Made by a program: the position numbers and the translations under genes
Virus record (IMG/VR): IMGVR_UViG_3300034157_000066
Reading direction: 5' to 3' (one strand)
From: a virus
Taxonomy: Duplodnaviria > Heunggongvirae > Uroviricota > Caudoviricetes
Length of the DNA stretch: 64,000 bases
Shown: positions 1,158 to 63,466 of the stretch, one piece after another
How the letters are laid out: each line of letters opens with the position of its first letter
Position numbering within the stretch: the first letter of the stretch is position 1
Notes under the pieces: model-generated
What the model saw: only the letters and a program-made list of their open reading frames with translations
Database searches by the model: none
Told to the model about the DNA's origin: nothing

Positions 1158-2999
1158 ATGACATTAAGAGACAACTTAAGAACAATTTCATTATTAAAAC
1201 ATTTACGATTTACTGATACTGTAAGGGATAACACCTTTGGAAATACGTACTTAAACTATAATGAAATGACTTTTATCCCCTATTTACATAATAATAAAGC
1301 CAACAGAGTTGTTACTAAAGGTCCATCTATTAAGGATTCAATTGACAAAGTGGCTGTCTTTATAAAAACTATACAAGAAACTGATCTTAACTCGTTAACT
1401 ACGCCGTTCGACGTTAATAAGTATTCATCCAGTATTGCTATCAATGTTAACGATAATAAAAACATTAGTTCGCACACATCATTACAAGCTGAAATCAATG
1501 GAGCTTGGATTGACTTCTACTGTTATGGTCAAGATAAATCAGTGAAAAAAGATCCATCTGCCATTAACAAATTTGAAGATCAACGTGAACTCATCAATCA
1601 AGTGGCAAAAGATTTAGATGCTAAACACAATGAATTCAACCGTTTTCTTTTGTTTTACTACACTTTGTCTGAACAACTACCTAAATCCATGTTACATGAA
1701 GAAGACCGATTGTATGTTGTGGCTTCGATCAATAAGTATGCAGAACAAATGCCTGATATTAACGAATTGACATCCTTATATGAGCAATACAATGATTTAA
1801 ATGCGGCATTATTGAAAGACATTAAAGAAAACTTGATAGCACTCAATCCAGACACTTTCGTTACAAAGGCTGATGCTTTCATTGCCAAAGAATTACAACA
1901 TCAAGAAAACAATTCAGTCGAGAATTTTTTGGCTACAAAAATGTTCTCAGATCAGTTGCTTGCCACAGTCGAGTTCACGGCAGCTCAAAAAATAGAGAAA
2001 GCCTTCGTATTTGATGATAACAGTATTGCCTACAAACGAAACAACCAGTATCACACCATCAAGGACAATGATGGACTCGCTGCATTCATCAGTGATATTC
2101 ACCATGAAGGATTAGCCTTCATGCTCAGAAAAAAGCCTAAAACTATAAGCTTCTTCCAGACCAAATTGAAAGAAGATTCTGAATATGGCAACTCTATCAA
2201 AGCAGCCTCTTCTTTCTTAGAACATTCTCAAATATTAAAGCAATACAACTTTGATTTAAACAGCTTTGCTGATAAGAGTTTTGAATTGATTGATGACACC
2301 ATTAACAACTTGGTCTACAAGAACAAAATTAAACAGTTCGCTTATAGTATTTTGAGTGCTAAATATAAACACCACTTCAATGAAGAGACTGAACCTTATT
2401 TCAAAGCACTTTTTGATAACGATGTGACAACTTCACAGTTACAAACATTTGTGGGTAAAAAATTAGCAGCAATTAATTCAAACGAAGATGTAATTTCTAT
2501 GTTGAATGGCATTCTTAATCATGTGGATGGCTTTACTCAAGAGGCATTAACTGAGAAGTTAGAATCATTCGGTATACAAAAAATTCATGATGCTAATAAT
2601 GTGGTCACATTTGAAGTGACAGATTATGAACAATGTAAAGCATTAGGCACAACCTCTTGGTGTATTGTTCGTGATGAAGATTATTTCGATCAGTATGTGA
2701 CGGACAGAAAAAACAATCAATACATTATTTACGATTTCAATAAATTATCAACCGACATTGAGTCAATGGTTGGATTTACAGTGGATAAGACTGGTAATGT
2801 TTATGCTGAACACTGGAAGGATGACTCTGCGATAGGCCGCTACAACAAAGCAGATAGCCTTGTTGCTATCCAGACAGATACTATTTACAAAAATCAGAAC
2901 CGACATACACTATCAGAAGAAACTATTGCTGATATGGAAGATATTCTTGGTATTAAGAATGTCAAACAAACTAAACATTTAAAAATGAGATTTTCATGA
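1158..2999 (+). CDS. hypothetical protein with PcfJ-like WC motif and basic C-terminal tail
   Basis: Long ORF; LGTTSWCIVRDEDYFDQY motif; ends KQTKHLKMRFS; ATG 1158 chosen over TTG 1146. Confidence 0.7.
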   Translation: MTLRDNLRTISLLKHLRFTDTVRDNTFGNTYLNYNEMTFIPYLHNNKANRVVTKGPSIKDSIDKVAVFIKTIQETDLNSLTTPFDVNKYSSSIAINVNDNKNISSHTSLQAEINGAWIDFYCYGQDKSVKKDPSAINKFEDQRELINQVAKDLDAKHNEFNRFLLFYYTLSEQLPKSMLHEEDRLYVVASINKYAEQMPDINELTSLYEQYNDLNAALLKDIKENLIALNPDTFVTKADAFIAKELQHQENNSVENFLATKMFSDQLLATVEFTAAQKIEKAFVFDDNSIAYKRNNQYHTIKDNDGLAAFISDIHHEGLAFMLRKKPKTISFFQTKLKEDSEYGNSIKAASSFLEHSQILKQYNFDLNSFADKSFELIDDTINNLVYKNKIKQFAYSILSAKYKHHFNEETEPYFKALFDNDVTTSQLQTFVGKKLAAINSNEDVISMLNGILNHVDGFTQEALTEKLESFGIQKIHDANNVVTFEVTDYEQCKALGTTSWCIVRDEDYFDQYVTDRKNNQYIIYDFNKLSTDIESMVGFTVDKTGNVYAEHWKDDSAIGRYNKADSLVAIQTDTIYKNQNRHTLSEETIADMEDILGIKNVKQTKHLKMRFS

Positions 3000-4381
3000 A
3001 AAAAGCAACTAAAGAAGAATTTATAGACTTATTAAATGATTTCAAATCAAAAAACAACATTGAAGATAACCGCTTTGATTATTATGCCACTTTCAAGTTC
3101 TATAAATCAACATTTCTTGATAATTTCTATGATATGTCGCTGGTTAAAACCGATTCTGATGAGCACCCTATTATGATTAGTCACTCTAACCGCAATTTAT
3201 TGGTTATGGACGATGAAAGTCATAAATTTATGGAGTTTGACTCACCTAATCGCCCAGAATTTGTTCCCATTATTAAAGACAAAAATATTGAACAGATACA
3301 GGAACTCATGAACATATTGGATGACAGCCGCAGCTTTAAAGAATTCGTAGAACCTGCATTCAAATTTTTAGATAATCTTAACAATTTTTCAAAGCTTGCA
3401 AAAGGTGTTTCCTCTATTAAAATTATAGAACTGTTTGATGGTTTAAAAGAGGCATTGAGTAAAGAAGTTGTCAGTGAAACATCACTTCGTCATTACCTTG
3501 ACGGATTAATTGATCAGTTAGCCACTTCATTATACATCGGGAATGAACTCACCACTTATCAGTTGACTCATTTGTTTAGAATTAGGACTACGGAAGATCC
3601 TGACACCATTATGAATACTTTATATGAACGCTTTGATAAATATTTCGATTTATTTAAAATTCAGCAATCGTTGATTATTGGTAGACTCTTAAATGCTGAA
3701 ACAGAAGCCGAAGTACTCAACAAGCCATTGCTTAATCAGTTCATAGAAGAAGCCAAGATAACCCACCCAGAATGGTTTAAGTCGTTTGATGAATCGTTAA
3801 CCCACTGTATGACCGATGACAACGCTATCAGGTTCTCAGGTGTTCCTTTGGCGACTGCTACGGCTGACTTTGACCTTATTGAGCCTAAATCTTTTATGGC
3901 GACTGCCTACCCAAGCTATACTGATGGGTATTCTCATATTTCTAATAGATTTATTGAAGCTGAATTAAACTTTGTTCATTTGTATGGGGACAATGTTTTC
4001 TTTAAAGCTTACTATCACAATCTCCATATAGAGACAGAAAACAAATTGACTTATTGCAAGGGTGTGGATTCTGATGTGGCATTTTGTATCAAGAACTCAG
4101 ATAGACAAGCATTCGTATTGCCAGTACTGGATTACTTGGATAAAAACAATATTATTATCGATCTATCAAAAGACAGTACTCTTTATCATTATATTAATAA
4201 GGAGGACTTAGTGGAACTTGTTAAAGCTGAGTATCCTAATCTTATTTTAATCCATCATGATTTAGGGTTTAAAAAGATAGGAGCCATTTTTCAATCGAAG
4301 TCATTCCAAGAGGCATTGGACAACTATCATAAAGATGAGCCAACATTGATTAAACCGCTTAAAAACAAACCTACATTTTAA
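2996..4381 (+). CDS. hypothetical protein, basic C-terminal tail
   Basis: 461 aa; ATGA overlap with upstream gene; ends LIKPLKNKPTF. Confidence 0.8.
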   Translation: MKKATKEEFIDLLNDFKSKNNIEDNRFDYYATFKFYKSTFLDNFYDMSLVKTDSDEHPIMISHSNRNLLVMDDESHKFMEFDSPNRPEFVPIIKDKNIEQIQELMNILDDSRSFKEFVEPAFKFLDNLNNFSKLAKGVSSIKIIELFDGLKEALSKEVVSETSLRHYLDGLIDQLATSLYIGNELTTYQLTHLFRIRTTEDPDTIMNTLYERFDKYFDLFKIQQSLIIGRLLNAETEAEVLNKPLLNQFIEEAKITHPEWFKSFDESLTHCMTDDNAIRFSGVPLATATADFDLIEPKSFMATAYPSYTDGYSHISNRFIEAELNFVHLYGDNVFFKAYYHNLHIETENKLTYCKGVDSDVAFCIKNSDRQAFVLPVLDYLDKNNIIIDLSKDSTLYHYINKEDLVELVKAEYPNLILIHHDLGFKKIGAIFQSKSFQEALDNYHKDEPTLIKPLKNKPTF

Positions 4382-6235: not shown

Positions 6236-6637
6236 ATGAAATTTGAGCTAACTCCTGTTGAGCAAGATATTGCTCCACGTTTTGAAATCAATATTGAATA
6301 CATTCATGGTGCTACTGACTATACTGTACGTCATGACACAGCTATTGTTCCAAGTGGAGATTTAAACGATCTCGAAAAATACATAGCTCGCTTTAATGAA
6401 CTTAGAGACATGGTTGAAGCAAACCGATCAGAAGGCGTTGAATATCCAGTAGAGTACAGAGCCGACTTTGAAGATTACTTCGCCAGTTTTGATGTTGACG
6501 GTCTTGATAATGTTTCCATTGATTTAATTAATGATGAAACCAATGATGACTTTGATTGTTTTGCCCGAATGGCTATCAATAAAATTGTTTACTACAATGA
6601 ACATGGTGTTAAGTTTGATGTAAAATGGACAGATTGA
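6236..6637 (+). CDS. hypothetical acidic protein
   Basis: GAGG RBS before ATG 6236; upstream TATAAT. Confidence 0.8.
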   Translation: MKFELTPVEQDIAPRFEINIEYIHGATDYTVRHDTAIVPSGDLNDLEKYIARFNELRDMVEANRSEGVEYPVEYRADFEDYFASFDVDGLDNVSIDLINDETNDDFDCFARMAINKIVYYNEHGVKFDVKWTD

Positions 6638-17793: not shown

Positions 17794-19350
17794 ATGAAGT
17801 TTATGAAATTGACAGTATTGTCATTAGCCATTATGACAGCCACTGGCACTTATGCTGAATATCAAGTTCTTGTTAAACTTGAACCAGAACACATCAACAT
17901 TGATGATTATGAAGTTGATGGAAATATAACACTTACAAAATCAACCATCAATCGTGGAGAATCATCTTCCATAGCATGGACATATACTTATGCGAATGAA
18001 ATTAATATTAATGGTGTCGGTAACTATACTGAAAAGTCTTCTTCTGTTATAGTTAACCCACTTGTCAGCACAAATTATGTCATCAATATTAAGAATGGGG
18101 CTAAAACAAAAGTAGAGCACTTAAACCTTACTGTTATCCAACCTATTCAAGACATCACATTTGATTCTGACACTTACAGAATTGGTTATGGTAAATCAGC
18201 TAAGCTTAGCTGGAATGTTTTAAATACGTCAGGTGTTAGCATATCACCATTGGGGCCACAATCAGATAGTGGTGTGTTCTCTGTTACACCTTTAAGTGAT
18301 ACAACTTATACACTGACTGCGAATGGCTATGATGGACTTGCTGCTAAAACAAAATCACTTAACATTACCGTAGTGCCAGACGCTGTTATTCAATCTTTCA
18401 CGGCTGATAAAACAAGTGTGACCAAAGGTGATTCTGTTAACTTCTCTTGGAATTCAACCAATCCAGAAGCCATTAAATTTAATGGTGAATCACTCAGTGC
18501 ATCAGCAACCACTAAAAATGTTGTCATGACTACAGTGGGTTCTTCTAATTACAAGTTAGATGTTGAGAGTTTAAGTGGTGCATCTGTTAGTGATACTGTT
18601 TCTGTTAACGTTCTTGATGTTCCAGTTGTGGGTACCATTAATAAACCAGCTACCAATGTATTTGCAAATGCTGCTTACACCACATCATGGACAGGCACTG
18701 GCGTTTCATCTTACAAACTATCAAGTAACAATGCTACATCAGGTGTTCCAGTAGCAGGTGTAACGCTTGGGGCAGCAACAAGTTATTCAATTACACCCAC
18801 TGCAGCCGGTACTTACACCTATACGTTAACTGGTGCGAACGCACTTAATTCCACTGCGAACAACACGTTCTCAATGACTGTTGAAGCCGATCCAACGTTG
18901 GGTGGTTTCTTAGTGAATGGTTCGACTGCGATTTCAGTGACAACCAACGCTGCTCTTAGCTTTACAAACTCAGGTTTGAGTGCTGGTTCAGCATTCCAAG
19001 GTAGAAGTGGTGCTTCCGATGTTGGATTACCGGGTACCGCTTCGGCAGGTGCAGGCGTCAGCACTTATTCGGCGGCGGCTAAGAAGACTTTGAATGGTAT
19101 TACCCGATACAGTGCTAATAGATCGGTAACAGTCACAACAGTTGCTCCGGGGCCAGTGTGTGAAGATATTTGGGGTTACAGCTACTGGAGTGAGACTGAA
19201 TATGAAGGTTCTGGTTATGAGTTGAGTGTTTACTGGAGAGGCGTTGCAAAATACAGTGGATATCGTTCAGGTAGTGGTGGTTCTCTGGTCGGTAACGATG
19301 GTAAAACATATGCTCAATCTGGTGATCGTGGCGTTTGTAAAATGAACTAA
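17794..19350 (+). CDS. secreted fibre/adhesin-like protein: signal peptide, Ig/PKD-like repeats, Cys-closed tip
   Basis: Sec signal ending TYA-EYQVLVKL; Thr/Ser-rich beta repeats (FTADKTSVTKGDSVNFSW); tip C...C rich in W/Y/G. Confidence 0.7.
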   Translation: MKFMKLTVLSLAIMTATGTYAEYQVLVKLEPEHINIDDYEVDGNITLTKSTINRGESSSIAWTYTYANEININGVGNYTEKSSSVIVNPLVSTNYVINIKNGAKTKVEHLNLTVIQPIQDITFDSDTYRIGYGKSAKLSWNVLNTSGVSISPLGPQSDSGVFSVTPLSDTTYTLTANGYDGLAAKTKSLNITVVPDAVIQSFTADKTSVTKGDSVNFSWNSTNPEAIKFNGESLSASATTKNVVMTTVGSSNYKLDVESLSGASVSDTVSVNVLDVPVVGTINKPATNVFANAAYTTSWTGTGVSSYKLSSNNATSGVPVAGVTLGAATSYSITPTAAGTYTYTLTGANALNSTANNTFSMTVEADPTLGGFLVNGSTAISVTTNAALSFTNSGLSAGSAFQGRSGASDVGLPGTASAGAGVSTYSAAAKKTLNGITRYSANRSVTVTTVAPGPVCEDIWGYSYWSETEYEGSGYELSVYWRGVAKYSGYRSGSGGSLVGNDGKTYAQSGDRGVCKMN

Positions 19351-35942: not shown

Positions 35943-36065
35943 GGTCATCAACAAGAAGGGGAAACCCATTCTTGATTAGCGGTAAAGAGATATGGATTAT
36001 ATTAGGCTTTATTGCATAATCTGTATCGAGGGTGTGAAAGAAATTTTATACTTCATCTGTTCCAC

Positions 36066-36138
36066 AGAGGTGTATATCAGTTGGTAGATAATCTCCCTAG
36101 CAGGGAGAAGGTCGCGGGTTCAAGTCCCGTCACTGATG
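36066..36138 (+). tRNA. atypical or pseudo tRNA, anticodon AGC (Ala-type), damaged acceptor stem
   Basis: D-stem TATC/GATA, anticodon stem TCTCC/GGAGA with loop CTAGCAG, T-arm GCGGG-TTCAAGT-CCCGT; acceptor mismatches at pairs 2 and 3; no CCA. Confidence 0.6.
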
Positions 36139-36166
36139 TGGATTTAGGCCGAGAGGTCAGGACAAA

Positions 36167-36240
36167 TACGGTGTATATCAGCGGCCTAGATAATCTCTCT
36201 AATCGAGAGAAGGACGTAGGTTCAAATCCTACCACTGTAT
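36167..36240 (+). tRNA. atypical tRNA, anticodon AAT (Ile-type)
   Basis: Full cloverleaf: TACGGTG/CACTGTA, TATC/GATA, TCTCT-CTAATCG-AGAGA, GTAGG-TTCAAAT-CCTAC; C37, G38, U73; no encoded CCA. Confidence 0.75.
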
Positions 36241-36250
36241 TGCAAGAACC

Positions 36251-57189: not shown

Positions 57190-57414
57190 ATGTGCAGTAA
57201 AACAGATGCTGATGGTTTTCTGCCTTGCCCATTTTGTGGTGGCACTGAAATTCACATGGAAACATGGAGCCGTCAACGAGGTGAGTGGCTGGGTAAAGTC
57301 ACCAATGAATGCTGTGGTTACACGTTTATTGTGTTGAACGTGGTCGGTTCCACCAAGAAAGAAATGATTGAATTTTACAAAAGACAGTGGAATAAAAGAC
57401 CAGAAAAAGCTTGA
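57190..57414 (+). CDS. Lar-like restriction-alleviation zinc-finger protein
   Basis: LPCPFCGG...CCG...WNKRP pattern of the Lar family. Confidence 0.65.
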   Translation: MCSKTDADGFLPCPFCGGTEIHMETWSRQRGEWLGKVTNECCGYTFIVLNVVGSTKKEMIEFYKRQWNKRPEKA

Positions 57415-57439
57415 TTTGTTGAGATGGATTTGGTAGAAT
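57411..57439 (+). promoter_or_regulatory. sigma70-type promoter of ncRNA unit
   Basis: TTGATT-17 bp-TAGAAT; the -35 overlaps the Lar stop codon. Confidence 0.75.
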
Positions 57440-57444
57440 AGCCA

Positions 57445-57730
57445 CATTGAAACAGAGTAAAGAATTCGGAGCCTGCGTAAAAGTGGGTTGGGTGGCAGCG
57501 GTGTCGCGGGCAAGCCACTAACGAGACATGAGAGAAATCTCTGTCTCACGGTAGAGAGGGGAATTAAAGTGTGGTTTGCTTTGATTAAAACGGCTGGGTG
57601 AGTCGGCTCCTTTCTGCTAACCTGATTAAATGTTACACACTAGTAGAGTGAAGAATTATGGCCCAAGAGGTTATGATTAAAACAGATGGGTGATCTGGCT
57701 TCCTTTGCTAAACCAAATTTAAAAGTTCAT
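57445..57730 (+). ncRNA. unknown structured RNA with two copies of a covarying motif
   Basis: Hairpins GGTGGC/GCCACT and GAGACA-T-GAGA-GAAA-TCTC-TGTCTC; motif copies 57573-57622 and 57669-57714; no SD-led ORF. Confidence 0.65.
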
Positions 57731-57886
57731 ACAGTAGTAGCTCAATGGATGTTTAAAGTAGGCCGCGACTTGCAAGGAGATTCTAGACTCTTTTCTTGAC
57801 GGTTTGGCCGATGATAAACTAGCTTTTCGACAAGCAGAGCGTGCCCACAAGGCAAGGCGTTGGTTCGATTCCAGCCTATTGTACCA
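57731..57886 (+). ncRNA. tRNA-like RNA with 85-nt D-loop insertion, shortened anticodon arm and encoded CCA
   Basis: ACAGTAG/CTATTGT acceptor, GCTC/GAGC D-stem, TGCC-CACAA-GGCA, GTTGG-TTCGATT-CCAGC, A-CCA at 57883-57886. Confidence 0.8.
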
Positions 57887-57893
57887 ACAACCG

Positions 57894-57928
57894 AAAACAA
57901 CTTGTTGAAAGACAGGTTGTTTTTTTTT
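57894..57928 (+). terminator. intrinsic terminator
   Basis: AAAACAACTTG...CAGGTTGTTTTTTTTT. Confidence 0.85.
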
Positions 57929-58028
57929 GCCTAAAATATTTGAATAATCAGAAATTACTTCAAAAAACACTTTCTTTGATTGTTCATATTTGTTATAATA
58001 GACCTTCAATATTTGGAGATACCCGAAA

Positions 58029-58226
58029 ATGATGACTAATACGACTTCTCAAATCAAAGTGGTTAAAAACGAAGGTGACTTCAAGCGGGCAATGGATGCT
58101 GGCTTTGCCATCAACCTGTTCGAATGTTCGGAAACAGAAATGTGGCTTGTCTTGCCAATGGAAAAAGCTGACATGAAAATGCACGCTAAACATCACGGCT
58201 TCACTCCAGTCGCTGTTACTCAATAA
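58029..58226 (+). CDS. hypothetical protein
   Basis: GGAG RBS. Confidence 0.7.
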   Translation: MMTNTTSQIKVVKNEGDFKRAMDAGFAINLFECSETEMWLVLPMEKADMKMHAKHHGFTPVAVTQ

Positions 58227-58251: not shown

Positions 58252-58461
58252 ATGGTTGATATTTTGAGCTTGGCCGAAAAGAAAATTTGCATTTGTGGCA
58301 AATGCAAGGCTACTTTGTCTTTCTCGCCGGATGACGTGACTTCTTTTGTTGAACGAAAATACATTGGACAGGCCCAAAAAAAATACTTCCTGATGTGCCC
58401 GAACTGTAATCACAAGATTGTTTCCGCACTGTCGTGGTTTCCTCCTGAATTTTGTGAATAA
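58252..58461 (+). CDS. zinc-ribbon protein
   Basis: CGKC and CPNC pairs; AAGGA RBS. Confidence 0.7.
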   Translation: MVDILSLAEKKICICGKCKATLSFSPDDVTSFVERKYIGQAQKKYFLMCPNCNHKIVSALSWFPPEFCE

Positions 58462-59949: not shown

Positions 59950-60041
59950 GTGCCTGAAATTTGAGAAATCAATTGTGAGTTTTTTCCATTTGTTGTATAA
60001 TAGCTTTAATCTAATCCATACATGTATTGAGGAATTTATTC

Positions 60042-60449
60042 ATGGCATTCGCTTACTCTGCTGCTTATCTCTCCCAAGGTTCCAATAAACTTTTCGAAGA
60101 TCTTGGCGTAGAAAAAGGTAAACTCCACATGACCACTTGCTTTGACACCACGGCTCAGATGCAGCCTTCTGACAATATTGATATTGTATACAAATCGGCA
60201 TTGATCGCGGCCATCACAGAATGGAATACTCCGAATGGTGTATACGTGGTTGCTGAACTGGATGATTGCTTGTGGAGTTCAATTTTGAATCAGCATTATA
60301 TTTCCCTCGGTGCTGTTGAAGATTTGCCACATAAGCCCCATATCACGTTGATGAAATCATCTTCGCCAGAATTGGTTGAACAGCTTCAGTCACTGGTTGG
60401 TGAAACCGTCTACTTTGACAGTCATACCATTAAAGTAAAAGGACTTTAA
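60042..60449 (+). CDS. acb1: 2H phosphoesterase, Acb1/T4 gp57B-like (candidate anti-CBASS nuclease)
   Basis: Two HxT motifs (KLHMTTCF, KPHITL); AYSAAYLS, WNTPNG and LGAVED align by eye with T4 57B; GAGGA RBS, own promoter 59973-60001. Confidence 0.7.
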   Translation: MAFAYSAAYLSQGSNKLFEDLGVEKGKLHMTTCFDTTAQMQPSDNIDIVYKSALIAAITEWNTPNGVYVVAELDDCLWSSILNQHYISLGAVEDLPHKPHITLMKSSSPELVEQLQSLVGETVYFDSHTIKVKGL

Positions 60450-62510: not shown

Positions 62511-62993
62511 ATGCAAGAATTGGCATCAGTAATTAAAGAATTTATGTTGAAACGAGGTGAAACCATCTCGGTTGCTGAAAGCCTCACCAGTGGCTATCTG
62601 CAGGCTCATATGTCCGCAGTAGCAGGATCTTCCAAGTATTTCTCGGGTGGTATCACCGCCTACAATATCGACATGAAGGTTAAGTTTTTGAATGTTGATC
62701 GAGCGAACGCTGAAATCTGTGATTGCGTCAGTGAACAAACAGCTATTGAAATGGCGAAAGGTGTTGTTGAACTTTTTGATACTGATTATGGTGTTGCGAC
62801 CACGGGTTATGTGGATAAAGAGAACTCGAAAGGAATGGCCCATGCTTATTTTGCCATCTACTCACGCAGAGATCGCAAATTGCACAGCTTCTTTATGTCT
62901 TGCACCCATTTGGAAGAAAGAACAGCAATTCAGGCATATTTTGCTAGACTTGCGACCGAAAAGTTGGTAAAATTCTTAACAGTTGACCTCTAA
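62511..62993 (+). CDS. pncC: CinA C-terminal domain / PncC NMN deamidase-like protein
   Basis: VAESLTSG (catalytic Ser), AGSSKYF, YNIDMK (Lys), VSEQTAIEMAKG; GP loop divergent. Confidence 0.8.
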   Translation: MQELASVIKEFMLKRGETISVAESLTSGYLQAHMSAVAGSSKYFSGGITAYNIDMKVKFLNVDRANAEICDCVSEQTAIEMAKGVVELFDTDYGVATTGYVDKENSKGMAHAYFAIYSRRDRKLHSFFMSCTHLEERTAIQAYFARLATEKLVKFLTVDL

Positions 62994-63019: not shown

Positions 63020-63466
63020 ATGCAAACTATCAAAGCAGCAACCAATCAAGAACTGGTTTTGGTACGTGGTCACTCGGGCAGTGGTAAATCCACTTTCGCA
63101 GGTTCTTTTGTTCCTTTCGGCTACAAGCATTTTGAAAACGACAGTTTCTTTGTCGGTGAAGACGGCGTTTACACCTTCGATTTTGCATTCCATCAGGTTG
63201 CCAAGGACGAGTGTGTCAAGAAAGCCGTTCAAGCTTTGCTGGATGGTGAATCGGTGGTGGTGAGCAACACCTTCACCAAAGTGGTTGAAATGGACTCGCT
63301 GGTTTCTTTCGCCAAAGAGTTGGGCATTGATATTCGAATTTTCGAAATGGAAAACGATTATGCCAACACCCACAACGTACCAGAAGCTGTTATTGTCGAA
63401 AAGAAGGCCGCTTTTGAGCCGATTGAGACTGCTTTGAAGGTCAAAGGTGATTATGTAATCGTTTGA
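63020..63466 (+). CDS. P-loop kinase (AAA_33 / polynucleotide-kinase-like)
   Basis: LVLVRGHSGSGKST Walker A, VVVSNTF, HNVP. Confidence 0.8.
   Translation: MQTIKAATNQELVLVRGHSGSGKSTFAGSFVPFGYKHFENDSFFVGEDGVYTFDFAFHQVAKDECVKKAVQALLDGESVVVSNTFTKVVEMDSLVSFAKELGIDIRIFEMENDYANTHNVPEAVIVEKKAAFEPIETALKVKGDYVIV

Follow-up and report, generated by a model that had tools for sequence, protein, structure and literature searches.

The main finding of this work is a tRNA-shaped RNA gene of 156 bases, located at positions 57731-57886 (+) of the window, a term used here for the whole stretch of 64,000 nucleotides that was analysed, on a giant uncultured phage-like element recovered from sewage and wastewater metagenomes. 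This RNA is most likely neither a working tRNA nor an intron-bearing tRNA, and we favour, with a probability of about one half, the reading that it is a tRNA-scaffolded effector RNA of the element. The RNA and the transcription unit to which it belongs are made up of the following features:

57411..57439 (+): sigma-70-type promoter (TTGATT, 17 nt, TAGAAT, with a TG-extended -10); the -10 box is kept in all relatives
57447..57730 (+): upstream structured RNA module and linker, matching no Rfam family
57731..57750 (+): 5' part of the tRNA-like RNA, with the acceptor 5' strand (57731-37), U8, A9, D-stem and D-loop
57740-43 / 57837-40 (+): D-stem GCTC/GAGC, from sequence and fold
57751-57835 (+): insert of 85 nt, preceded by the D-loop AAUGGAU (G18 and G19 at 57747-48) and followed by A21 (57836)
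57751..57819 (+): long irregular hairpin of the insert, from the fold, with a 10-nt apical loop, UUCUAGACUC
57822..57835 (+): small hairpin of the insert, GCUU-UUCGAC-AAGC, from the alignment of alleles
57836..57858 (+): A21 to the variable region, with the D-stem 3' strand, G57841, the anticodon-arm analogue and the variable region AGGC
57842-54 (+): anticodon-arm analogue UGCC-CACAA-GGCA, 4 bp with a 5-nt loop
57859-75 (+): T-arm GUUGG-UUCGAUU-CCAGC, from sequence and fold
57876-82 (+): acceptor 3' strand CUAUUGU, then A73 (57883) and an encoded CCA (57884-86)
57893..57932 (+): strong intrinsic terminator (14-pair stem, 57893-57924, and T run), conserved in relatives, 6 nt past the CCA

The acceptor stem ACAGTAG/CTATTGT has 7 bp including one G.U (G4.U69) and is followed by TA (U8, A9). 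Deletion of 57751-57835 leaves a 71-nt cloverleaf, and the D-arm restored by this deletion, TAGCTCAATGGATAGAGC, is letter-identical to that of ordinary phage tRNA genes (L001, L008, L009). In the MFE fold of the 156 nt, the cloverleaf is accompanied by both hairpins of the insert, the long one and the small GCUU/AAGC one; as a whole, the RNA is no more stable than shuffled sequences (z -0.48). Sequence, cloverleaf and fold therefore agree with the initial annotation, which had described a tRNA-like RNA with a precise 85-nt insertion at position 20/21 of the D-loop. No call was made at 57731-57886 either by ARAGORN or by Rfam, at the gathering threshold or at E up to 10. Under default settings ARAGORN identified the insert-deleted forms of three relatives as tRNA-Ile(aat), and it left the insert-deleted form of the window uncalled because the loop there has 5 nt. 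A covariance model (R1), built from three relatives only and not from the window, gave the window copy a score of 166.5 bits; when the insert was skipped, true tRNAs were matched too, namely the tRNA-Ile(AAT) gene at 36168 in the window (E 0.0013) and the T4 tRNA-Thr (E 1.8e-7). These cross-matches indicate that the body is that of a generic class I elongator tRNA. Like a canonical tRNA, it has a proper acceptor stem, D-stem, T-arm and elbow nucleotides (U8, A14, G18G19, U54-U55-C56, A58), and it departs from one in lacking a 7-nt loop with U33 on a 5-bp anticodon stem and in lacking nucleotide 26. In all 12 full-length alleles U8, A14, G18G19, A21, U54-U55-C56, A58, the acceptor stem, A73 and CCA are kept, the only change at the acceptor end being U or C at position 69.

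Such constancy of the acceptor stem (bar U/C at 69), of A73 and of the encoded CCA would be permissive for a charged tRNA mimic, that is, an RNA whose CCA end is aminoacylated by an anticodon-ignoring synthetase and which serves as a dedicated amino-acid donor or carries its arm into EF-Tu or the ribosome. The CCA is encoded here and not in the two ordinary tRNA genes of the element, which also speaks for charging. Nevertheless, this seems improbable to us, since the G3:U70 pair that constitutes the AlaRS element and the long variable arm of SerRS substrates are both absent, the insert occupies the D-loop that LeuRS reads, and no synthetase or transferase genes were found within the window. 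The anticodon is required by IleRS, so that the varying anticodon described below rules out recognition of the IleRS type. As for other RNA classes, ARAGORN detected no tmRNA, and the tRNA-like RNA differs from tmRNA by its A3:U70 pair and by an extra domain that lies in the D-loop instead of replacing the anticodon arm; there was likewise no Rfam match to Y RNA and no TROVE (Ro60) match among the window proteins scanned with Pfam.

Relatives were gathered through exact look-ups of the neighbouring Lar-like protein and of the members of its cluster. In total, R1 located 50 copies of the RNA, three of them cut by contig ends, which represent 12 distinct full-length alleles and come from independent JGI, ENA (including global sewage assemblies) and Logan contigs. 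Because the 50 copies lie on independent contigs, the RNA is no assembly artefact, which the initial annotation had named as one way in which its reading could fail. Other searches were negative: the whole unit, used as a DNA query, matched nothing in the phage collection, scanning IMG/VR for the pattern of an interrupted D-arm gave 0 matches or only false positives (two adjacent tRNA genes), insert-pattern scans, two of metagenome contigs and one of genome contigs, returned 0 matches, and R1 found no copy in the 437-kb relative G001 or in G002.

The distribution of changes among the relatives is uneven. When eight distinct full-length alleles were aligned (alignment A5), the 5' part had 2 variable columns out of 20 and the 3' part 20 out of 57, against 10 out of 89 in the insert, where all ten were at the base or junctions; the insert is thus conserved in homologs and shows none of the random decay that had also been considered at the outset. 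Between the window and L020, L021 and L022 the insert is 93-94% identical, the 5' part 100% and the 3' part 80-91%, with flanking genes at 71-83% and identical codons at 49-63% of conserved residues. The upstream RNA, at 81-87% identity between the window and the L020-L022 and L069 lineages, also stays below the insert. At the divergence of the neighbouring spacer, the probability of 5 or fewer differences in 85 nt is 3e-4. With L069, the window shares 153 of the 156 positions (98%) of the tRNA-like RNA, the flanks being 74-87% identical. The comparison with L017, a near-identical genome, gives the reverse picture, with flanks 97-100% identical and a tRNA-like allele only ~89% identical; since the flanks are nearly the same and the allele has diverged, alleles have been exchanged by recombination. 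All tRNA-like alleles are 89% or more similar to one another and they have been moved between lineages by recombination, so that part of what appears to be conservation could reflect recent spread and not long purifying selection. Indels of one and two bases between alleles disrupt any reading frame, and a coding function is therefore excluded on either strand. A mutation hot-spot in the 3' half was considered and rejected, given that the SNP density there, among 17 close relatives, is at background level and not above that of the neighbouring DNA.

These data bear on the simplest explanation, that of a disrupted tRNA pseudogene under neutral drift. An anticodon loop too short to decode in the window and the silence of ARAGORN and Rfam are what such a relic would display. 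We consider this reading hardly credible, and it is contradicted by the conservation data, because the tRNA-like RNA is conserved far over its flanks in all comparisons but that with L017 (the near-identical genome with a swapped allele), undergoes compensatory changes, has its own promoter and terminator and is present on 50 contigs.

The insert measures 82-85 nt across alleles. Its long hairpin is predicted to comprise the helices GUUUA/UAAAC, GU/AU, GGCCG/UGGCC, GACU/GGUU and CAAGGAGA/UUUUCUUG, and these 69 nt alone are more stable than shuffled sequences (z -2.44; 3/200 shuffles). Since 7 of the 25 pairs are G.U, the hairpin exists only in the RNA of the + strand, matching the direction of the promoter and the terminator. 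A core of 47 nt (57762-57808), made of stems, internal loops and the apical loop UUCUAGACUC, is invariant among all full-length alleles, against an identity of only 72-87% in the flanking genes; L025, truncated by a contig end, carries a single C to U change within it. The basal helix is maintained by differing pairs in three allele types (GUUUA/UAAAC; GGUU/AACC; GUUUAA/UUAAAC with GUA/UAU), of which GGUU/AACC represents a one-step register shift that results from two changes and leaves the architecture unchanged. A paired one-base indel makes the small hairpin differ in length, from 4 bp in the window and in L069 to 3 bp (GCU/AGC) in every other allele. The invariance of the core and the compensation of the basal helix bear out the earlier proposal of a conserved structured cargo domain in the D-loop. 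Covariation of the insert in homologs, which had been suggested as a check, was found at the base and in the small hairpin and was lacking in 21 of the 25 pairs of the long hairpin, which do not vary and are neutral as to the fold; the case for the fold of the insert thus comes from prediction and from compensation confined to the base.

Several further properties were considered for the insert. Further copies of it were found neither in the window nor in the loci, so that a mobile element was dismissed, and no target complementary to the apical loop stood above chance within the window. A hammerhead-like CUGAUGA was rejected as not conserved. Some alleles contain GAUAAACCG, which equals the 3' end of the type I-E CRISPR repeat; since this motif belongs to the variable base of the insert and Rfam gave no match to a CRISPR-DR family, mimicry of a CRISPR repeat was discarded and the likeness was treated as a coincidence. 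Pairing of an upstream GUCGCGG with CCGCGAC of the insert (7 nt) was also set aside, there being no covariation either way: the sole variant (C to U in L025) gives a G.U pair, and the genomes without the tRNA-like part differ at the site.

The anticodon arm is the most variable region among the alleles. Most of them have a 7-nt loop, CUAAUAA or CUAAUCG, with the anticodon AAU, and the 5-nt loop CACAA, 2 nt shorter, occurs in three lineages (window/L016/L065; L055-L059 with L061-L063, eight full-length contigs; and L069), which makes it a strongly conserved form and not a one-off defect. According to the ARAGORN drawings, every allele lacks nucleotide 26 and has a stem of only four pairs, Watson-Crick or wobble, to which a G.A pair is added. 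The stem covaries (UGCC/GGCA, UGCU/AGCA, UGCU/GGCA, UGCC/GGUA, GCCU/GGGC). As the relatives show, the ancestral loop is CUAAUAA or CUAAUCG; its AAU anticodon, together with A1:U72 and A73, makes the ancestral identity Ile-type, and the initial annotation's description of the arm as Val-like is not upheld by the relatives. A loop of 7 or 5 nt, a 4-bp stem with a G.A and the lack of nucleotide 26 argue that decoding is not the conserved function of this RNA, and decoding by it is unlikely.

It might still be asked whether the RNA is the precursor of a tRNA-Ile(AAU) from which the D-loop insert is removed by an endonuclease and a ligase of the phage or the host, close to the protein-spliced intron put forward in the initial annotation. 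The precise deletion that restores a textbook D-arm, the 7-nt CUAAUAA/CUAAUCG loop of most alleles, the Rnl1-type ligase encoded by relatives of the element and the "enigmatic", highly conserved introns of Lak megaphage tRNAs (PMC6784885) would all be in keeping with it. Nonetheless, the 4-bp anticodon stem and the lack of nucleotide 26 extend to all alleles, and the 5-nt loop is strongly conserved in the window allele and two other lineages. When the predicted folds were inspected by eye, no bulge-helix-bulge (BHB) or relaxed HBh' motif, with both junctions in 3-nt bulges around a 4-bp helix, was seen at the insert junctions: the first bases of the insert pair within it, with its far strand (GUUUA/UAAAC), and not with the start of the 3' part, and the 3' junction comes after a closed hairpin. 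No intron or ribozyme family of Rfam (group I/II, small self-cleaving) matched within 57200-58100 at E up to 10. The search for an endonuclease or RtcB that had been recommended found none within the 64-kb window, nor was any Rnl1 ligase encoded there, and in the relatives that have Rnl1 the ligase replaces the RNA unit and does not accompany it. Furthermore, a spliced decoder would be expected to show the reverse of what is seen here, where conservation is higher in the insert than in the would-be exon and lowest in the anticodon arm, which is defective. Hence, splicing is in our opinion very unlikely.

The RNA is the 3' module of a stretch that contains no ORF from promoter to terminator. 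The final codons of the Lar-like gene (57190-57414) extend into the promoter. The conserved multi-helix part of the upstream RNA spans ~57465-57627, with a hairpin, GATTAAAAC-GGCTGGGTGAGTCGGCT, at 57583-57610; in the window lineage only, a duplication of ~90 nt (~57636-57727) adds a second copy of this hairpin at 57675-57703. The linker ends in ...AAAAGTTCAT, with U at position -1 to the tRNA-like part. Within one unit the tRNA-like module always lies 3' of the conserved upstream RNA, and the latter is an independent module, occurring without the tRNA-like part in L010 (a 437-kb IMG/VR contig), where a different, non-tRNA-like RNA comes next, and in L018, where a gene follows directly. By analogy with mascRNA, which has this role for MALAT1, such an arrangement could mean that the tRNA-like part is only a processing signal or 3' cap, RNase P setting the 3' end of the upstream RNA and the 156-nt product being a by-product. 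The constant position of the module and the independence of the upstream RNA, with other 3' partners or none, would suit this explanation, which we regard as improbable, given that a mere handle for RNase P could dispense with the 85-nt insert, which is nonetheless the segment conserved best, and that L010 and L018 do without any tRNA-like module.

The genes around the unit are small and mostly of no assigned function. A Lar-like zinc-ribbon gene directly precedes it, and Acb1-like (below the cut-off of Pfam), CinA/PncC and AAA_33 kinase genes lie downstream, a neighbourhood that suggests a role in host takeover or counter-defence. The element looks like a giant phage, judging from sigma-70 promoters before small genes, a protein of the T4 Y00F family just outside the window and a window protein (17794-19350) that resembles a virion structural protein of T4-like cyanophages. 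Two genes, of 65 aa (58029-58226) and 69 aa (58252-58461), are always found downstream of the RNA and are missing from the 437-kb relative that lacks it, an observation that concerns one genome and serves as a lead only. In more distant relatives (L026-L032, from a 498-kb contig), the gene that immediately follows the Lar-like gene encodes a T4 Rnl1-type RNA ligase; it takes the place of the RNA unit and does not stand alongside it.

It is known that phage tRNAs counter anticodon nucleases, as the T5 tRNA-Lys does against PARIS. The tRNA-like RNA could accordingly be a decoy or inhibitor of a tRNA-binding enzyme, its body luring a tRNA-targeting defence nuclease of the host, or another tRNA-handling enzyme, its arm blocking or trapping the enzyme and its changing anticodon arm tracking the enemy. 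The counter-defence-like neighbourhood, the occupation, in relatives, of the slot after the Lar-like gene by a ligase of a tRNA-repair enzyme family, the focus of variation on an anticodon arm whose stem is still paired, and the swapping of alleles between otherwise near-identical genomes are all compatible with this possibility, to which we give limited credence. An arm with 4 bp and a 5-nt loop imitates a real anticodon arm poorly, the SNP density of the 3' half among the 17 close contigs is no higher than in the neighbouring DNA, and a decoy leaves the invariance of the 47-nt hairpin, loop included, unexplained. The two maintained classes of anticodon arm and the Rnl1 swap at the slot do point to a tRNA-centred conflict.

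The favoured reading, that of a tRNA-scaffolded effector RNA, starts from what was observed, namely the anatomy, the conservation pattern, the compensatory changes and the absence of intron signatures, and from these we infer transcription, RNase P and 3' processing, a binding partner and a biological role. The sigma-70 promoter (57411) would give a transcript of ~480 nt that ends at the terminator (57893-57932), and the 3' module would fold into an L-shaped tRNA body. Host RNase P would then cut at 57730/57731, with U at -1, and 3' exonucleases would trim the RNA to the encoded CCA, so that a stable 156-nt RNA is released from the upstream structured RNA. The insert adjoins the elbow and might hinder RNase P, which reads the elbow. 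The tRNA body would be responsible for processing, folding and stability, and possibly for access to tRNA-binding machinery; the working part would be the invariant hairpin, which projects from position 20/21 of the D-loop beside the intact G18G19/T-loop elbow and probably binds a sequence-specific partner, a protein or another RNA. As the D-loop naturally varies in length at 20/21, an arm placed there can spare the G18G19/T-loop elbow, and since any short hairpin would do as the anticodon arm, this arm can vary freely. According to this proposal, the RNA would neither decode nor be spliced. A more ambitious version, which we advance tentatively and consider rather unlikely as a whole, would see here a new class of phage RNA that uses a complete tRNA body as a delivery vehicle into tRNA-specific machinery, perhaps a synthetase, EF-Tu, the ribosome or a tRNA-targeting immune nuclease, to present the invariant 47-nt hairpin, with two classes of anticodon arm (the AAU 7-nt loop and the CACAA 5-nt loop) that might be aimed at different partners.

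Comparison with known systems shows which parts of this architecture have precedents. Compared with an Ile-type tRNA (RF00005), the phage RNA shares the acceptor stem, D-stem, T-arm, elbow nucleotides, A1:U72, A73 and CCA, and differs by its 85-nt D-loop insert, by a 4-bp anticodon stem and, in the window, by a 5-nt loop. The tRNA cluster of T4 encodes RNAC (species 1 RNA; NC_000866 70908-71046, 139 nt), a stable RNA whose function is still unknown (PMC3014915, PMC9697503). The fold of RNAC computed here (z -4.57) has a terminal stem, with U.U mismatches, that joins the 5' and 3' ends, a canonical T-arm, CCGGG-UUCGAAU-CCCGG, by this stem, a non-canonical "anticodon" hairpin with a 6-nt loop and a ~60-nt hairpin at the position of the D-arm, so that in this model RNAC appears to be tRNA-shaped and non-decoding, with an oversized arm on the D side. 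The likeness to our RNA lies in being phage-encoded and made with tRNA-type transcripts and in the general architecture only. Unlike our RNA, in RNAC the whole D-arm is a long hairpin, with no proper D-stem and no G18G19 next to a loop insert, and CCA is not encoded; R1 gave no match to rnaC, there is no sequence similarity, and RNAC has no family in Rfam. Y RNAs of the YrlA type, some of them phage-encoded, contain a tRNA-like domain on which tRNA enzymes act, as in RNase P cleavage and CCA addition (Chen et al., 2014; PMC4201824). There, the two ends of the RNA form the stem that binds Ro60, and this stem departs from the tRNA-like domain at the position of the anticodon stem, whereas the ends of the phage RNA form a normal acceptor stem, its extra domain is in the D-loop and the Pfam scans of the window turned up no Ro60/TROVE gene.

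The tRNAs of Lak megaphages carry "enigmatic", highly conserved introns without a known mechanism of splicing (Devoto et al., 2019; PMC6784885); these inserts, found with the eukaryote settings of tRNAscan, have identical sequences across cohorts (PMC6784885). Those settings imply the usual position in the anticodon loop, and the tRNAs concerned have assignable anticodons, in contrast to the phage RNA, with its D-loop insert and defective anticodon arm; huge uncultured phages are involved in both cases. In MALAT1, with its mascRNA, and in the TMERs of gammaherpesvirus 68, a tRNA-like module within a longer transcript recruits tRNA-processing enzymes, by which the parts are released (PMC8457004, PMC4337559); these systems are eukaryotic, and their extra hairpins lie outside the tRNA-like fold and not in the D-loop. 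A search of Rfam 15 and of the literature returned no large, sequence-invariant D-loop domain in a complete, CCA-ending tRNA body. Mimics of tRNA as such were already known, and it is the invariant domain borne by the D-loop that constitutes the new aspect. Should the arm prove to be an effector, the RNA would be the equivalent in nature of the engineered "tRNA scaffold" with which recombinant RNAs are expressed and would offer giant phages a new RNA-based route to act on their hosts. It also provides a comparative handle on a 50-year-old question, the role of phage stable RNAs such as T4 RNAC.

The site directly after the Lar-like gene, which in the window is held by the ORF-less unit ending in the tRNA-like RNA, is occupied in a group of relatives (L026-L032, Lar-like protein at 82% identity) by a gene for an RNA ligase.
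e.g. L026 2840-3982, T4 Rnl1-type RNA ligase (PF09511), 380 aa, present in L026-L032
The presence of this ligase in the place of the RNA unit suggests that the slot is a swappable cargo site of tRNA-related character. Within the RNA unit itself, the module lying 5' of the tRNA-like RNA is a conserved family of its own, found at the following positions:
Window 57447-57627, upstream structured RNA
L010 (the 437-kb relative) 3250-3435, the same RNA
L018 (another relative) 6330-6560, minus strand, the same RNA
This RNA had no match among Rfam families; it is characterised by GGAGCCUGCGUAAAAGUGGGUUGGGU... together with a hairpin, GAUUAAAAC-GGYUGGGUGARYCGGCU, and its 3' partner differs, three kinds having been seen. 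In the lineage of the window, about 90 nt including the hairpin are doubled, the second hairpin copy being located at 57675-57703.

Several genes of interest follow the RNA unit in the window:
58029-58226, plus strand, 65-aa protein, phrog_14851
58252-58461, plus strand, 69-aa protein, faint zinc-finger matches below Pfam's cut-offs
60027-60449, plus strand, Acb1-like protein (E 2e-4, under Pfam's cut-off)
62511-62993, plus strand, CinA/PncC
63020-63466, plus strand, AAA_33 P-loop kinase
The first two come after the tRNA-like RNA in nearly all sufficiently long contigs, and both are missing from the 437-kb relative (98% complete by CheckV), which itself lacks this RNA; it is possible that their products are its partners. 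The remaining three all lie within 6 kb downstream, surroundings that look like nucleotide or RNA-end processing with a counter-defence character. One of the carrier contigs is very large (L070, JGI 3300028584, 1,851,360 bp), with its locus copy at 1,840,171-1,845,398, about 6-11 kb from the contig end, and further contigs in the cluster table measure 1.07-1.92 Mb. Contigs of this size may be host chromosomes into which the element has integrated, or else chimeras or concatemers.

The D-loop insert of the tRNA-like RNA carries an invariant apical loop:
Window 57781-57790, UUCUAGACUC, 10 nt
As this loop contains the 6-nt palindrome UCUAGA, loop-loop dimerisation of the RNA could be conceived from its sequence, a lead only, since such a palindrome is expected by chance in about 8% of 10-nt loops (rough estimate).

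The window also encodes two ordinary tRNAs:
36065-36241, plus strand, tRNA-Ala(AGC) and tRNA-Ile(AAT), own unit ending in a terminator
Both have A34, which is unusual among bacterial tRNAs, as well as D-stems made of A/U only, and neither encodes CCA. Rfam detects only the first, tRNA-Ala(AGC), and misses tRNA-Ile(AAT), which has C at position 37 and shares its loop, CTAATCG, with some alleles of the tRNA-like RNA.

Among known systems, the comparison was made with the species 1 RNA of phage T4, which is not in any Rfam family:
L068 (T4 locus) 1409-1547, minus strand, rnaC (species 1 RNA)
Its predicted fold is tRNA-shaped (z -4.57): the T-arm is canonical, and a long hairpin takes the position of the D-arm.
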